Positions 1,344-32,607 of a DNA stretch of 33,444 bases are shown here, one piece after another. The number at the start of each line of letters is the position of its first letter. Position 1 is the first letter of the stretch. The DNA lies in assembly GCA_002339755.1 (NCBI GenBank), contig DDKT01000081.1:1-33444 (forward strand), given 5' to 3'. Below the pieces are notes generated by a model that had not been told where the DNA came from, searched no databases, and saw only the letters and a program-made list of their open reading frames with translations. The stretch comes from Patescibacteria group bacterium UBA2591. GTDB lineage: Bacteria > Patescibacteriota > Patescibacteriia > UBA2591. Made by a program: the position numbers and the translations under genes.

Positions 1344-1384
1344 AAAAGAAGGGTGAGATTCGCCTTCCCTTCTTTTTGTTTTTT
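1344..1384 (+). terminator. Rho-independent terminator
   Basis: Perfect 10-bp stem aaaagaaggg / cccttctttt with a 13-nt loop, followed by tgtttttt, 26 nt after the stop codon. Confidence 0.8.
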
Positions 1385-1476
1385 AAAGCTGTCAAGGCTA
1401 TTTAGAAATTTCATACCTACGAGCCAAATAGAAATTTCATACCTGGCAGAATTGATGGTTTTTAACCTCGACCTTT
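1381..1476 (+). repeat. Module copy M2 (~95 nt): 5' box CTGTCAAGG, two exact 16-nt iterons, and a degenerate -35-like TGGCAG-ATTGATG
   Basis: TAGAAATTTCATACCT is exact at 1403-1418 and 1429-1444 (26-nt spacing). By hand alignment the block is ~80% identical to 17826-17920. Confidence 0.8.
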
Positions 1477-16060: not shown

Positions 16061-16203
16061 AAGTTCTTAATCTAGTAAAATTGAATCTTCTTTGCCCTAA
16101 ATTCAAGTCCGGATTGTGTTATTCAAGTCCTATTTGTTTATTAAATCTTGAAATTTAAATCTGTTAGATTTTATGTCCTTTATTTTAAAAGGGAGTAGTG
16201 ATA

Positions 16204-16452
16204 ATGACAAAAAGAGAGGAGGTGATTGATAGTGGCAAAAAGAGTTCCAAAAAAAAGAGAAGTTTTAAGCTTTCTAGCGAAGGAGATGATACTTTTTGGA
16301 CGACTTTTGCACTCAATGCACCAAAGCAAAGGCGGGGTATCATCTCGATAAATCTCACTCTTCGTCAGAAACAAATGCTCAACAAGGAATTAATGCGAGA
16401 AGAATGGATGAAGAAGAATCGACAGAAATTCTTCAAAAAGTTCTCTCTTTAA
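16204..16452 (+). CDS. Small, highly basic hypothetical protein (speculatively ribbon-helix-helix-like)
   Basis: AAGGGAG lies 9 nt before the ATG at 16204. The 82-aa ORF is followed by a perfect terminator. GC is ~40%. The segment RRGIISINLTLRQKQMLNKEL has a beta-strand-then-helix pattern. Coding status is uncertain because an overlapping alternative-frame ORF exists. Confidence 0.4.
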   Translation: MTKREEVIDSGKKSSKKKRSFKLSSEGDDTFWTTFALNAPKQRRGIISINLTLRQKQMLNKELMREEWMKKNRQKFFKKFSL

Positions 16453-16465
16453 AAGAGAAGACTGG

Positions 16466-16510
16466 AGTGAATCGAAATTAGGATAAATCGAAATCGATTC
16501 ACTTTTTTTT
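16466..16510 (+). terminator. Rho-independent terminator
   Basis: Perfect 10-bp stem agtgaatcga / tcgattcact with an 18-nt loop, followed by a T8 run. Confidence 0.8.
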
Positions 16511-16556
16511 AAAAAATCTAAATTTAATTAACCATACTATTTTTCTTATATTTCGA

Positions 16557-16612
16557 ATAGATCTGCCAAAGCTATTTAGAAATGTCATATGACTACTACA
16601 CATATGAAGGCA
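16557..16612 (+). repeat. Module copy M3 (5' box CTGCCAAAG plus first iteron)
   Basis: atctgccaaagctatttagaaatgtcatatga matches M2 at 25 of 32 positions, including the exact 13-mer gctatttagaaat. It is followed at the same ~53-nt distance by a consensus -35 box. Confidence 0.65.
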
Positions 16613-16616
16613 CTCT

Positions 16617-16645
16617 TTGACAAATTTGAAACGATATGTTATTTT
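16617..16645 (+). promoter_or_regulatory. Sigma70-type promoter of the LVIVD gene, followed by a ~185-nt leader
   Basis: TTGACA (16617-16622), 17-nt spacer ending in TGT (extended -10), then TATTTT (16640-16645). The -35 context TTGACAAATTTGAAACGATATG resembles TTGACAAAATTGATGCAATGTG at 184. Confidence 0.6.
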
Positions 16646-16834
16646 GAACTTGATATTTAGGGAGGAAGCAAGAGGAGTAGAAAAAAATTCTTTCTAAAGT
16701 ACTCTAAAGCTCTCTTCCTAAATATTTTCATAAAATAAAAGCCGTACGAAGGGAGGTGAAAAATTAGACTTTAAACAAAAACAGAAAAAAAATAAATTCT
16801 TTCTTAATAAAGTATAAAAGGGGGTTGATAAAAA

Positions 16835-17722
16835 ATGGAAAGAAGGGGAAAACTCTATGCTTATGTTGCAAATGGGCGTGGTCTTGGGATAATAGATGTC
16901 TCTAATCCAAGCTCTCCAAAAGAGGTAAGTTATTATGAGACAAAGGGTGAGGCACGTGGTGTTTATGTTTTGGGTAACTGTGCTTATGTTGCAGATGGGC
17001 GTAGTCTTGGGATAATAGATGTCTCTAATCCAACCTCTCCAAAAGTGAAAGGTTATCGGAAGACGCGAGGGTACGCAGAGGGTGTCTATGTTCTAAATAA
17101 CTATGCTTATGTTGCAAATGGACGTGGTCTTGAGATAATAGATGTCTCTAATCCAACTTCTCCAAAAGAGGTAAGTTATTATGAAACAAGAAGTCAGGCT
17201 TGGTCACGTAGTGTTTATGCTCTGAATAACTATGCTTATATTGCAGATGGGCGTGGTCTTGGGATAATAGATGTCTCTAATCCAACCTCTCCAAAAGAGA
17301 AAGGTCGTTATGAGACATCGGGTTATGCATGGAGGGTTTATGTTTTGCGTGACTATGCTTATGTTGTAAATGAACGTAGTCTTGGGATAATAGATGTCTC
17401 TAATCCAACCTCTCCAAAAGAGGTAAGTTATTATGAGACAAAGGGTGAGGCACGTGGTGTTTATGTTTTGGGTAACTGTGCTTATGTTGCAGATGGGCGT
17501 AGTCTTGGGATAATAGATGTTTCTAATCCAACCTCTCCAAAAGTGAAAGGTTATCGGAAGACGCGAGGGTACGCAGAGGGTGTCTATGTTCTAAATAACT
17601 ATGCTTATGTTGCAAATGGACGTAGTCTTGGGATAATAGATGTCTCTAATCCAAGCTCTCCAAAAGTAAAAGGTTATTGTAAGACACCGGGTTGGGCAAA
17701 AGGTGTTTATGTTTTAAATTAA
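16835..17722 (+). CDS. LVIVD-repeat beta-propeller protein (seven ~41-aa repeats), no signal peptide
   Basis: The unit YAYVA(N/D)GR(G/S)LGIIDVSNP(T/S)SPKE... occurs seven times (LVIVD-type). AAAGGGGG lies before the ATG. GC is ~41%. Confidence 0.75.
   Translation: MERRGKLYAYVANGRGLGIIDVSNPSSPKEVSYYETKGEARGVYVLGNCAYVADGRSLGIIDVSNPTSPKVKGYRKTRGYAEGVYVLNNYAYVANGRGLEIIDVSNPTSPKEVSYYETRSQAWSRSVYALNNYAYIADGRGLGIIDVSNPTSPKEKGRYETSGYAWRVYVLRDYAYVVNERSLGIIDVSNPTSPKEVSYYETKGEARGVYVLGNCAYVADGRSLGIIDVSNPTSPKVKGYRKTRGYAEGVYVLNNYAYVANGRSLGIIDVSNPSSPKVKGYCKTPGWAKGVYVLN
16921..17125 (+). repeat. Copy 1 of a 205-nt near-identical internal duplication in the LVIVD gene
   Basis: 16921-17125 versus 17419-17623 (offset 498 nt, or four repeat units) differ at a single position (gtCtct / gtTtct) by direct comparison. 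Confidence 0.85.
17419..17623 (+). repeat. Copy 2 of the 205-nt internal duplication in the LVIVD gene
   Basis: See copy 1. Confidence 0.85.
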
Positions 17723-17730
17723 TCGTTTAA

Positions 17731-17777
17731 AATCCAAGCGTTTCAATTGCTTCAATCTTGGAGCGCTTGGATTTTTT
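17731..17777 (+). terminator. Rho-independent terminator
   Basis: Perfect 10-bp stem aatccaagcg / cgcttggatt running into a T-run (attttttat), 9 nt after the stop. Confidence 0.8.
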
Positions 17778-17825
17778 ATAAAATTTAAAGTCTCCATAGG
17801 GAGATTTTAATGGGAATAATTTCTA

Positions 17826-17920
17826 TTTTAAAAACTTGTCAAGATTATTTAAAAATTTTACCCTTACGAGCTAAATAGAAATTTTATACCTAGCAAGATT
17901 GATAGTTTCTAATCTCGGTC
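17826..17920 (+). repeat. Module copy M4 (~95 nt), homologous to 1381-1476
   Basis: The copy reads ttttaaaaacttgtcaagattatttaaaaattttacccttacgagctaaatagaaattttatacctagcaagattgatagtttctaatctcggtctt. It has the same box order and the same 26-nt iteron spacing as M2. Confidence 0.8.
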
Positions 17921-18036
17921 TTGCTAATTCTTTTTGGGGCATAATAATAATTAGTTCATTTATCATAGATTTTCCTAAGATTAAGGTTTTTTAAAATTCG
18001 ACCTTTCTTAAGAAGATTATGACACACATTTCTTCA

Positions 18037-18080
18037 AAGTATGAAATTTTTAAATGACCCAATTATGAAATTATCATATG
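18037..18080 (-). repeat. Two inverted (minus-strand) iteron copies
   Basis: gtatgaaattt (18039-18049) is the exact reverse complement of the iteron core aaatttcatac. A second, degenerate copy ttatgaaattatc lies at 18063-18075, giving 24-nt spacing. Confidence 0.55.
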
Positions 18081-18393
18081 GCTATGGCACATTTTTATAG
18101 ATCTTGTTTAAAATTGACTTTTGTGATAGGATAAGAATAGTTTCAAATAAACAATAAATTTTATCTATTTTAGTATAACTTTTGGCTAAATACCATTAAA
18201 AATTAATATTTGGTATTTATTTTCTACTTTTTCGCTAATTTTAAGCTAATCTAGGACTATTAAAAATAAATATTTTAGTTATTTTAAAGCCATTTAATTC
18301 AAGAAAGCTTTATTTATCACATTTTATCAACAGCCTACCTTTGATATTAGCGAAAATTGCCAAATTATCCAAAATAGTCTATGGGAGGATTAT

Positions 18394-29970: not shown

Positions 29971-32607
29971 ATGGAAAAAGGAGCTGAATTTTATCGAAAA
30001 AAGGAGGAACACCGCAAAGAAATGCGGAAAATTTTACCGCCTGAATTACAATTGGAATTTCCCCAAAAAAGACCAGAAAAAGAAAAATGGTTATTTGAAA
30101 AAAACCTTTTAAAATTAAGAGAATCTCAAAAACCAGAAGATAGACTATTTGTTGAAATTTTAAGGATGAAAATTAAAGAAAGACTTAATAAAAAAATAAC
30201 CCAAAAAGAAAAAAAAGAGATAAATGAATTACAAAAAGAGACAAAAAAAAGCAAAGAAGTAATCGGTTTTGTTTTAGAAGTCAGAATTTTTATTCTCCAA
30301 GGATTGGATGATGAAGACCGGGATATCCGACGCTCAGCCCTTGAACAAATCCAATACTTGTCAGAAGAGGAAAGAAAAAATGCTATTCTCCAAGGATTGA
30401 GTGATAAAAGATGGAATGTCCGATGCTCAGCCCTTGAACAAATCCAATACTTGTCAAAAGAGGAAAGAAAAAATGCTATTCTCCAAGGATTGAGTGATGA
30501 AAACTGGATGATCCGATGCTCAACCTTTAAACAAATCCAATACTTGTCAGAAGAGGAAAGAAAAAATGCTATTCTCCAAGGATTGAGTGATAAAAGATGG
30601 AATGTCCGATGCTCAGCCCTTGAACAAATCCAATACTTGTCAGAAGAGGAAAGAAAAAATGTTATTTTCCAGGGATTGAGTGATGAAAACTGGATGATCC
30701 GATGCTCAGCCCTTGAACAAATTAGATATATTTTAGAAAGTATTGATTCCTCTCAAATCTCAGGGTCATTGAATAAAATTTTAAACCTGATTAAGAAAAT
30801 TAGCCCAGATCATCTTTTTTATTCACAAAAAATCATTTCTTCTCTCTTAAGAAAAGGCCAAGACCTAGGTCAATTCTCTTTAGAATATCTGCCTCAATTT
30901 GAAACAATAAAAAGCTATTCTCAAGAAATAAATCAAAAATTACCGCTTGAAAAGCAGACTGATAACACAGAGACATTCTGGCAAAAACATCAATTAGAAT
31001 TAGCCAAATTACACTCCCTAAGCTTAAACCTATCAACTTCTTGGTTAACTGGATATCTAAAGAATTTCGGTTTTCCTCGATTAGAAAGATTTTTAGAAAA
31101 TATAGTAAAACCATTTCGATCAGAAGTATTAAAAGAGCCTTTAGCCAAAATTAAAGAAATTGAACCAGAGCATTTCATTAGACTAATTGAAATTTCTTTT
31201 GCTTATCAAAGAATGAATTTAGAAGAAAAATTAGAGAAGATTCTTAAAGAAAAGACTAGCCAAGAGATAGAATCTAAAGAATTAATTAAAATTTTAGGCA
31301 GAAATCTCTTAAAAGAATTTGTCCAAAAATTGAAAATTGAAGCTAAGATTAAAGAAAATGCTTTTGATCGCTGGAATTTAGAATACTTACCCAAGTTGTT
31401 TACTGCTGAAGCTCAATATGAGTCAGAATCCAAAGAATTTTTAAAAGTGATAATGAAAACTTCTTTTCAGGAAGAATCGTTTTTACCTTCTCTTTTTGGT
31501 CAAGTTGAGGGTGAATATACTGAAGATGAAAAAGAATATCTAAAAGAAATTAAAGAATACAACCTAAAAGTTAAAAAAGAATTTGAAAAAAATGGTTTAG
31601 ATTTTGAAAACTGGCTTAATTACCGAGAAGAAAAAAAATTTAAAGTTGGCGCATCCCATGATCAGTTAAAAGCAAAAAGGAGACAATTTGAGAATGAATT
31701 AACTTCAGCAATCAAAGAATTACTTGGCTCTTGGCGAGAGAAAAAGGAAGGGATTTTATCTAAAGAGGAAACAAAATTAATTTTTGACAGAGTAATTAAA
31801 GCATACGGCATTCAATTTAAGGAAGAGGGTCTTATTCATCCCCAAAAAGGTAAATTCTCAATTAAAGATATTGGTATTATTCTAAATGATTTTTATTCAG
31901 AAATTGAAAAGATCTTTAATCAAGAAAGAGATAGAACCAAAAAAGAAAACATTGGTACAGCCCTTTCTCATCTCAAAGGCTTAATTGAAGAATTGCCTGA
32001 TTTAGAGAAAGAATTATTAAGAAAGGGCTTTGAGCTGGAAATCAGAATTTGGCAGAGAGAGCCGGGTTATGATATTTTTCAGGGCAATTACACTCGTTGT
32101 TGCGTAGCTGTGGAAAATTTCAATCGGGCAGCAATGCTTGATTATTTAGTTGACACTAATTTACAAGTAGTTGAAATCAGGGATAAAATAGAAGACAAAA
32201 CAATTGCCCAGGCCTGGCTATTTATAGCTGAAGACAGTCAAAATAATTTAAATTTGATTTTAGATAGTGTGGAAATTAACTCAGATTATTCAGGCCTGGA
32301 GCCTCAAATCAAAGAATCCCTTTTTGCTTATCTGAAGGAATATACTAAAGCTTTTAGCCAAGGGAAAATTAAAAGAATCTTACTTGGCGCTTCTTCATAT
32401 AATGATATTGAAACAGAAGACATGAATTCCGTCTCTTTGTCTCAAACTAAATTAGCTGGCTGTCCAAGAGAAACCCAATATTTAGATGCCTTTGGTTCAG
32501 CTTGGGTTGATCCTTCAAAAGAAACCTTAAAATCATTTTTTGTAGTAGCTGAGGATTTAGAAAAGCCGATAGAAAAATCAAAAGGGGGAAGGAAAGATGC
32601 CAATTAA
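29971..32607 (+). CDS. Hypothetical 878-aa protein: N-terminal HEAT (PBS-lyase-type) repeats plus a large uncharacterised C-terminal region
   Basis: Five 31-aa repeats ILQGLSD(K/E)(R/N)W(N/M)(V/I)RCSALEQIQYLSEEERKNA are present. The C-terminal ~200 aa contain WQREPGYDIFQGNYTRCCVAVENF, which I cannot assign to any family. Confidence 0.6.
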   Translation: MEKGAEFYRKKEEHRKEMRKILPPELQLEFPQKRPEKEKWLFEKNLLKLRESQKPEDRLFVEILRMKIKERLNKKITQKEKKEINELQKETKKSKEVIGFVLEVRIFILQGLDDEDRDIRRSALEQIQYLSEEERKNAILQGLSDKRWNVRCSALEQIQYLSKEERKNAILQGLSDENWMIRCSTFKQIQYLSEEERKNAILQGLSDKRWNVRCSALEQIQYLSEEERKNVIFQGLSDENWMIRCSALEQIRYILESIDSSQISGSLNKILNLIKKISPDHLFYSQKIISSLLRKGQDLGQFSLEYLPQFETIKSYSQEINQKLPLEKQTDNTETFWQKHQLELAKLHSLSLNLSTSWLTGYLKNFGFPRLERFLENIVKPFRSEVLKEPLAKIKEIEPEHFIRLIEISFAYQRMNLEEKLEKILKEKTSQEIESKELIKILGRNLLKEFVQKLKIEAKIKENAFDRWNLEYLPKLFTAEAQYESESKEFLKVIMKTSFQEESFLPSLFGQVEGEYTEDEKEYLKEIKEYNLKVKKEFEKNGLDFENWLNYREEKKFKVGASHDQLKAKRRQFENELTSAIKELLGSWREKKEGILSKEETKLIFDRVIKAYGIQFKEEGLIHPQKGKFSIKDIGIILNDFYSEIEKIFNQERDRTKKENIGTALSHLKGLIEELPDLEKELLRKGFELEIRIWQREPGYDIFQGNYTRCCVAVENFNRAAMLDYLVDTNLQVVEIRDKIEDKTIAQAWLFIAEDSQNNLNLILDSVEINSDYSGLEPQIKESLFAYLKEYTKAFSQGKIKRILLGASSYNDIETEDMNSVSLSQTKLAGCPRETQYLDAFGSAWVDPSKETLKSFFVVAEDLEKPIEKSKGGRKDAN
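30292..30725 (+). repeat. Coding tandem repeat (93-nt HEAT unit with 186-nt higher-order period)
   Basis: The unit starting at 30382 (gctattctccaaggattgagtgataaaagatggaatgtccgatgctcagcccttgaacaaatccaatacttgtca...) recurs at 30568, offset 186 nt, and appears identical or nearly identical over about 90 nt by eye. The two flavours alternate: KRWNVRCS and ENWMIRCS. Confidence 0.85.

Follow-up and report, generated by a model that had tools for sequence, protein, structure and literature searches.

Transposase-less debris of an IS1202-family insertion sequence in the intergenic DNA of a Patescibacteria contig

A repeated module, made of a short box and two direct repeats, is present in the intergenic DNA of contig DDKT01000081.1 of Patescibacteria group bacterium UBA2591, of which the whole 33,444 nucleotides were analysed and are referred to hereafter as the window. 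There is little room for doubt that this module is the end of an insertion sequence (IS) belonging to the long-target-duplication branch of the IS1202 family (formerly the 'IS1202 group' of ISNCY), an IS that is abundant in Patescibacteria. The window itself holds relics devoid of transposase only, namely a miniature inverted-repeat transposable element (MITE), a solo right end (1390 to ~1527) and a 28-nt scar of a right end. The repeat is real and its explanation is ordinary mobile-DNA debris, derived from an IS1202-family IS that is newly seen in this lineage. A literature search yielded no description of this IS in Patescibacteria. The window has a GC content of ~30%, all its gene-like long open reading frames (ORFs) lie on the plus strand, and the relatives of its RNase Y and ClpP proteins place it among Patescibacteria, near Falkowbacteria.

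The parent IS was recognized in loci fetched from scans of genomes, metagenomes and transposase clusters, which are designated by L-numbers and are not part of the window. A 19-mer scan of representative genomes returned 50 loci, ~45 of which are chance single matches in unrelated taxa, and the only true relatives (L005, L015, L038 and L042) each harbor the entire layout of box and two repeats. The module adjoins the C-terminus of a transposase in L005, and two facing copies lie ~1.5 kb apart around an ORF of 438 aa in L038. Beyond L038, the metagenome scan uncovered six full elements of 1491-1554 bp as well as a MITE (L055). Inverted pairs of the module thereby flank a DDE transposase gene in L038/L056, L053, L054, L058, L059 and L061, and the look-up of two transposase clusters, P0015 and P0017, provided 20 further contigs (L071-L090) in which the same pair flanks an identical transposase of one or the other cluster within a 1554-bp element. 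In all, at least 25 of the fetched loci show this arrangement. Many of the metagenome contigs are chimeric across the IS repeat, their flanks pairing up between contigs. The 438-aa transposases of L038 (CAZNTW010000008.1) and L056 are 100% identical, and the metagenome-assembled genome (MAG) containing L038 is labelled Gammaproteobacteria; this points either to foreign contigs in the bin or to a distribution of the IS beyond Patescibacteria. The neighbours of this IS copy are, by their appearance, a MurG-like ORF of 354 aa and an ORF of 465 aa with a secretion-looking C-terminal tail.

Intact elements measure 1.49-1.56 kb and encode a single transposase of ~430-440 aa with helix-turn-helix (HTH) and DDE domains, enclosed by imperfect inverted repeats of ~55 bp. 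This transposase matches the NCBIfam family NF033594, 'ISNCY family transposase' (390.7 bits for a cutoff of 250), and, in its N-terminal part, the Pfam domains HTH_32, HTH_29 and HTH_28. Plasmid genes with the annotation 'IS1202-like element ISEsa1 family transposase' match 95% of its length at 38% identity. The protein collection contains at least 7840 relatives of it, and those that have a name are called 'ISNCY family transposase [Patescibacteria group bacterium]'. Its motifs comprise QFDG at residue 149, DDAT at 174, YLDR at 212 and GRIERANITLQ at 257, which include the two family hallmarks of a glutamine seven residues past the catalytic glutamate and of a DD pair situated between the first and second catalytic aspartates. 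The strict pattern G[RK]IE-x6-Q is present in 82 of the 120 nearest relatives. Members of the IS1202 family are described with TGT/ACA ends, an additional transposase-binding site near each end, a glutamine at position E+7 and a size of ~1.5 kb, and are divided into subgroups by target duplications of 5-6, 15-17 or 27-28 bp (PMC10132070; bioRxiv 10.1101/2022.12.17.520857).

The ends found here agree with this description. Full copies all begin with TGTCG at the left end or TGTCAAG at the right end, and the two ends differ slightly, the left inverted repeat (IRL) being TGTCGTAGCAATATGATAATTTCATAGTTGAGCAATTTAGAAATTTCATACCTTGA..TGCCATAAT, which includes the transposase promoter, and the right inverted repeat (IRR) being CTGTCAAGGCAATTTAGAAATTTCATAGTACGAGCAAAATAGAAATTTCATACCTGAACC. 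Every left and right end carries two direct repeats of 17-19 nt placed 26 nt apart. Target duplications are exact over 15 bp in L056 and over 16 bp in L071, and 14 of 15 positions are retained in L059; similarly, the 15-mer to the left of the IS in L081 is the 15-mer to its right in L088. Because the published descriptions of the IS1202 family match point by point, box and repeats are taken together as one IS end: the box is the TGT cleavage tip and the supposed iterons are the inner part of the terminal repeat plus the extra internal transposase-binding site. An earlier note on this DNA had considered the layout undescribed, whereas TGT tips with an internal transposase-binding site are a stated feature of IS1202 (PMC10132070).

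Within the window, the homology of the blocks 1381-1476 and 17826-17920 that the note had aligned by hand is clearly borne out, including the box and the two repeats. Indeed, 75 of 98 aligned columns are identical, the local alignment scores 54 while none of 30 shuffles of 31 kb exceeded 18, and the ungapped identity reaches 76% over 110 nt (family D5 of a repeat search). The exact 16-mer TAGAAATTTCATACCT occurs at 1403-1418 and 1429-1444, 26 nt apart, with a copy bearing one mismatch at 17876-17891. Terminator-like hairpins (1350-1366 and 17748-17765, respectively) precede the two blocks, as had also been noticed. Separate IRL and IRR models were built from full IS copies and run with nhmmer on the window, together with a generic end model. 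The first block contains an IRR at 1390-1454 on the plus strand (IRR model positions 1-69, E = 8.6e-18), hereafter copy 1, with a 5'-TGT tip at 1390-1392 and the exact 16-mers marking its two putative transposase-binding repeats. The full-length elements of L053 and L059 have an IRR that matches copy 1 at 93% identity over 56-57 nt. Copy 1 is followed on the same strand by the decayed right arm of this IS (1455-1527), in which the last part of the transposase gene and the non-coding DNA beyond it appear to persist as remnants. This right-arm stretch is common to the second block until ~1475, with a fainter colinear trace until ~1652, and weak colinear blastn matches to IS positions 57-97, 111-158 and 423-438 are found downstream of copy 1. 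As the end models detected no inverted left-end partner downstream, copy 1 is interpreted as a solo, truncated end. A string CACTGCA followed by 16 nt and TTGACA(1746) was considered as a left-end relic for copy 1, but the resemblance does not suffice to support it. Just inside the repeat, the two blocks have ~28 nt in common, the '-35-like ... ATTGAT' stretch of the note, which appears, when read by eye against the right arm of L056, to be the 3' end of the transposase gene of the parent subfamily.

The second block belongs to a 253-bp MITE (17837-18089), in which a right arm is joined to a left arm by the near-complete loss of the transposase gene. Its right arm, copy 2 (17837-17919, plus strand), is more diverged than copy 1 and is recognized by the IRR model with E = 1.2e-07 (17837-17893) and by the generic end model with E = 1.9e-13. 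Its left arm, an IRL on the minus strand at 17920-18089, had been overlooked by the note and is matched from 18088 to 17971 by IRL model positions 2-118 (E = 1.5e-18). Besides its tip, TGCC at 18089, this arm has two repeats, the predicted promoter of the transposase and the opening codons of the transposase gene. It aligns colinearly over 169 nt, at 78% identity, with the left arm of the full-length IS of L053. A 31-aa relic ORF, MINELIIIMPQKELARPRLETINLARYKISI, lies on the minus strand at 17871-17966, as established by translation, and is listed by gene callers in L001 and L002. It reads MINELIIIMPQKELAR... and its start, ELIIIMPQKELAR, matches the transposase N-termini ELIIMTQKELSR, so that this ORF is the N-terminus of the transposase fused to right-arm sequence through the internal deletion. 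The extended -10 motif TGTCATAAT of the predicted transposase promoter is kept in the MITE at 18016-18024 on the minus strand, directed leftward into the element. Of the six full-length left ends, five (L054, L058, L061, L053 and L059) show the motif TGCCATAAT at the equivalent place and the sixth (L056) reads CGCCATAAT without the TG; the motif is absent from the L055 MITE. The segment 17837-18089 shows three of the characters by which MITEs are recognized, as the two ends of the parent IS face each other in it, its size is small and it has no transposase gene. An independent MITE of like design, of 234 bp and with a target duplication conserved at 13 of 15 positions, is found in L055. A transposase query gave no tblastn match in the window at E <= 1e-3; the 31-aa N-terminal relic and a faint VNNDF trace are the only vestiges of the transposase there.

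The target of the MITE (18090-18132, plus strand) consists of a 14-nt spacer (18090-18103) and a putative rny promoter, in which 17 nt separate the -35 TTGTTT (18104-18109) from an extended -10, TGA-TAGGAT, whose last nucleotide is 18132. A strain whose RNase Y is 96% identical exhibits the consensus IRL TGTCGTAGCCATATGATAATTTCATAGTTGAGC at the equivalent site, and its three independent assemblies (L063, L064 and L065, position 1) break inside this left end, 33-34 nt from the tip, as is expected of a multicopy repeat. In L066, which encodes an RNase Y of 76% identity, the rny promoter is present and the IS end is absent, which represents an empty site; the homologous promoter is also present in L063. 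The empty site in L066 and the occupied one in the 96% strain are consistent with an insertion in the lineage of the window, followed by decay. The window has its counterparts in JGI contig Ga0326297_100092 and in two contigs of the MAG GCA_022729515.1. At the end of L069, this MAG breaks instead 186 nt into the LVIVD gene, within its tandem repeats; in the window, in-frame tandem repeats with a period of 123-129 nt and units up to 97% identical extend across the LVIVD gene (16855-17775).

A third relic, copy 3, covers the outer 28 nt of an IRR, with the tip and the first repeat, at 16564-16591 on the plus strand (IRR model positions 1-28, E = 0.004 in the window). The third copy proposed by the note is therefore retained as genuine-looking, since 16558-16589 share 27 of 32 nt with copy 1 (repeat family D14), yet its status as an IRR remnant is marginal at this E-value. 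The octamer CTACTACA at 16593-16600 agrees with the left-end tip CTACGACA at 7 of 8 positions and lies 16 nt before the TTGACA (16617) of the LVIVD promoter. From a reading of the sequence alone, it is tentatively proposed as a left-end tip relic in the canonical geometry, in which case copy 3 may be a 37-bp scar retaining the right-end tip and the left-end tip of an old insertion at the LVIVD promoter. All three relics in the window point one way, with their left-end side facing the next rightward promoter. On the contrary, the fourth copy that had been suggested at 118-212 and the weak look-alike at 16090-16180 gave E = 13 or no match with the three end models.

Several observations weigh against the attribution of the module to this IS and its derivatives. 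In this genome, copies and the transposase gene were searched in the 33 kb window only. The subgroup placement is based on duplication length, motifs and annotation and not on a direct alignment to ISTde1 or IS1202, and the binding of the transposase to the repeats is taken from the family literature. The MITE is not flanked by a clean target duplication, as 8 of 14-15 positions match at the copy-2 flank, and the copy-3 flank as duplication partner of the MITE left flank gives 9 matches of 14, which leaves the assignment ambiguous. Finally, the left-end tip of the MITE is mutated (TGCC, not TGTC) and copy 2 has diverged. With a mutated tip, a diverged second block and a degenerate duplication, the decayed copies of the window give no sign of continued mobility.

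By analogy with TnsB of Tn7 and with ISAjo2, the HTH domains of the transposase would bind the repeated sites at both ends. The bound ends would pair and be cut at the TGT...ACA tips, and the cut ends would then join target DNA opened with a stagger of 15-16 bp; MITEs would be mobilized in trans by the same protein. The loci compared here show directly how the ends are laid out, to which family the transposase belongs, how long the target duplications are, and that several insertion sites and deletion derivatives exist. Binding, pairing, cleavage and strand transfer are inferred from knowledge of the family.

The insertion sites of this IS display a common pattern, seen among the left-end flanks of L053-L061, L055, L063 and L071-L090. 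In about 15-19 of 24 distinct left-end flanks, positions -21 to -15 are occupied by TGTCAAG, with an A-rich tract before it, and the 15-16-bp duplication sits between this motif and the left tip of the IS. The right-end flanks, used as a control, exhibit no such motif. On the opposite strand, the motif reads TTGACA and is followed 17 nt further on by a -10 sequence, such as TATACT in L072, TATAAT in L077, TAGGAT in L071 and TAGGCT in L089. A gene other than the small ORF over the left end is called to the left of the IS in 15 of the 20 P0015/P0017 loci (L071-L090), and in all 15 this gene lies on the TTGACA strand, divergent from the transposase gene. Moreover, a full IS is directly followed by a MITE of the L055 type in L072 (2936-3180), with one target duplication common to both, and by the end of a second, related element in L083 (2188-2258), also with one target duplication; these tandem insertions point to repeated targeting of the same site. 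The geometry in the window fits, since the left tip at 18089 is separated by 14 nt from TTGTTT-N17-TAGGAT ahead of rny, as in ~20 other sites, and this spacer is exactly 15 nt in the relative with a 96% identical RNase Y.

We give an even chance to the hypothesis that the patescibacterial long-duplication IS1202 branch is site-directed, its left end being placed exactly one duplication length, 15-16 bp, upstream of a -35-type TTGACA (IS strand AAAAWTTTGTCAAG), with the transposase gene always divergent from this promoter and with the formation of tandem arrays by repeated insertion at one site. The targeting determinant would be either a DNA motif mimicking the own right-end tip CTGTCAAGG of the IS or a promoter-bound RNA polymerase. 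The target sites represent a small number of communities, and the pattern could be exaggerated by purifying selection that removes insertions inside genes. If true, this would be the first target for the long-duplication IS1202 subgroups, for which none is reported (PMC10132070), with a parallel in the ISAjo2-type members that insert 5 bp from XerC sites; it would also explain the position of the three window copies upstream of rightward promoters and the look-alikes of the box near promoters. These look-alikes, which had been mentioned as a hint that the module might be a generic promoter architecture, probably arise because the tip TGTCAAG, read on the opposite strand, is a -35 hexamer and because the IS inserts next to such hexamers. 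A generic architecture is not what was found. Near-obligatory insertion next to -35 hexamers would affect the evolution of promoters in these tiny genomes.

Other explanations of the module were considered. The note had favored a portable promoter/operator or recombination unit that travels with foreign, GC-rich genes and regulates them, copies 3 and 4 being active and copies 1 and 2 degenerate. The idea of a recombination unit survives in the form of a transposon end and that of a promoter cassette does not. It could draw on the position of copy 3, 53 nt upstream of a consensus promoter (TTGACA-17-TATTTT, 16617-16645), on the GC content of two neighbouring genes, above the ~30% background, and on the fact that the left ends of the IS do carry a promoter. 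However, copies 1 and 2 are of the right-end type, which is promoterless in every full element, copy 4 is not detectably related and resembles the tip of another IS, and elsewhere the module flanks a transposase gene and not cargo, while the DNA between the two blocks is housekeeping. The cassette model is already largely refuted and we regard it as very unlikely. The relics lie in intergenic DNA because the IS apparently inserts beside promoters and not because they carry or regulate GC-richer neighbours. An even less credible proposal, which hardly deserves to be retained, is a structured non-coding RNA gene or an iteron-type site for replication or partition. The palindrome GAAATTTC in the repeats and a hairpin of -18.2 kcal/mol in copy 1 speak in its favor, but folding of the three copies on both strands gave no consistent structure; the z-scores are unremarkable, and both the plus-strand values (-1.78 and +0.91) and the minus-strand values (-2.29 and -0.74) disagree from one copy to the other. 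Furthermore, there is no Rfam match at gathering thresholds and no Rep-like gene among the genes checked, the 16 kb between the blocks are housekeeping DNA, and copies of the motif face each other on either side of a transposase gene.

Two further possibilities accept the IS origin of the module and differ in the role given to its remains. The LVIVD gene could be the passenger of a unit bounded by IS ends, similar to a mobile insertion cassette or a transporter IS, extending from 16564 to 18089 (~1526 bp) and mobilized in trans. The two tips are mutually inverted and their span is the length of an intact IS, the outer flanks present ATAGATC in register (9 of 14 matches with a 7-nt run, a pattern found at 105 of 66,860 window positions), and IS1202-family members with passenger genes are known (PMC10132070; bioRxiv 10.1101/2022.12.17.520857). 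Yet copy 3 keeps 28 nt only and has lost the second binding site, and the flank match was noticed post hoc in AT-rich DNA. The internal right end (copy 2) is unexplained unless a tandem insertion occurred, as in L072 and L083. In addition, no second genome was found with LVIVD between such ends, and related genomes encode LVIVD proteins without IS ends, so that we hold this passenger hypothesis to be unlikely. Slightly less likely still is a co-option of the MITE, which lies 14 nt upstream of the rny -35 and could modulate rny or produce an antisense RNA against the 3' end of LVIVD. The insertion is kept at the equivalent site in the strain with a 96% identical RNase Y, the inward extended -10 TGTCATAAT is intact and a terminator-like hairpin is present on the minus strand (17804-17791), but common descent is enough to account for its retention in two close strains, its ends are undergoing decay, and in a more distant relative the promoter is present and the element is not.

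The gene content of the window does not suggest a mobile island either. The 16 kb between the blocks, which the note had seen as bracketed cargo, encode housekeeping functions, including Rrf2, a PLP-dependent enzyme (the cysteine synthase of the note), tRNA-modification enzymes, DNA ligase, the delta' subunit of DNA polymerase III, RbfA and ClpP. Blocks 1 and 2 were also rejected as att sites or as the ends of a composite transposon or island, being ends of the same type, in direct orientation, 77% identical and separated by housekeeping genes. The relatives with the nearest ClpP proteins (93% and 88% identical) harbor a tRNA-His directly downstream of clpP, then different genes, without IS ends (L091, 1389-1460; L093, 1168-1241); the window (16061-16834) shows instead a basic ORF of 84 aa, the scar of copy 3 and the LVIVD gene. 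As judged by this comparison, the junction downstream of clpP is rearranged in the lineage of the window, and the limited colinearity of these relatives does not allow the LVIVD or copy-3 events to be dated. ARAGORN identified no tRNA or transfer-messenger RNA anywhere in the window. Elsewhere, the ORF 29971-32607 contains four in-frame tandem units of 93 nt at 30291-30755.

At the other extremity of the window, the region of the supposed fourth copy resembles the tip of an IS of the IS481 type, distinct from the module, at 148-179 on the plus strand (reverse complement TGCACTGGATGAGGACATGGGTAAC). It shares 27 of 32 nt, counted by hand, with the end of an IS481-type transposase gene in L058, and the encoded tails are KALPMSSSSAYP in the window and KVLPMSSYSTW in L058, the reverse complement beginning with a TG tip. 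No further copy of this tip was found among the fetched loci. From this single comparison, 148-179 is probably what remains of the tip of another IS, similar to IS481, and lies immediately before the first gene's promoter. The window may start inside this remnant, perhaps 1-179, and the contig may end there due to the repeat. The first gene (269-1318) has a sub-threshold match to Pfam ChrB_C (24.6 bits for a cutoff of 25), the label 'MYG1-like' given by the note could not be verified, and its region reaches a GC content of 43-47%, compared to ~30% in the rest of the window. If the IS481-like tip is right, this GC-rich gene is flanked by the debris of two IS families, which fits horizontal acquisition in general and not a 'portable promoter'.

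What seemed to be a new regulatory module thus becomes the debris of mobile elements, a MITE, a solo end and a scar, and the idea of a 16-kb cargo island is dropped. For the annotation of Patescibacteria, it is useful to know that this IS and the MITEs derived from it are very common there, that they interrupt assemblies and that they give rise to spurious small ORFs. The possible target preference may be of interest to transposon biologists because no target is known for the long-duplication branch.

Among known systems, the closest are the long-duplication IS1202 members (ISTde1 and ISCARN53/62/63), which similarly measure ~1.3-1.75 kb and encode a single HTH-DDE transposase with a glutamine seven residues past the catalytic glutamate. 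The TGT...ACA ends, the extra internal transposase-binding site near each end and a duplication of 15-17 bp are likewise common to ISTde1-type members. On the contrary, the inverted repeats of reference members are 24-29 bp long, whereas those described here reach ~55 bp with two sites of 17-19 bp placed 26 bp apart, and the host (Patescibacteria), the apparent preference for TGTCAAG/TTGACA at a fixed distance and the absence of transposase from the window derivatives also set them apart. The element at 17837-18089 is similar to MITEs in its two inverted ends, its missing transposase gene and its arms colinear with the parent IS; unlike typical MITEs, it has a degenerate duplication and one mutated tip. 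The ISAjo2/ISAba32 subgroup, which targets dif-like XerC/D sites, shows the same oriented insertion, with the left end one duplication length away from the motif, and the same tandem re-insertion, but with a duplication of 5-6 bp and a XerC-binding site instead of 15-16 bp and a -35-like TTGACA. Finally, TGT tips and several repeated transposase-binding sites per end are also characteristic of the ends of Tn7, which carry the TnsB sites, and the IS1202-family transposase has been reported to model on TnsB (PMC10132070); the present element differs from Tn7 as a single-gene IS devoid of accessory genes of the TnsA/C/D/E type.

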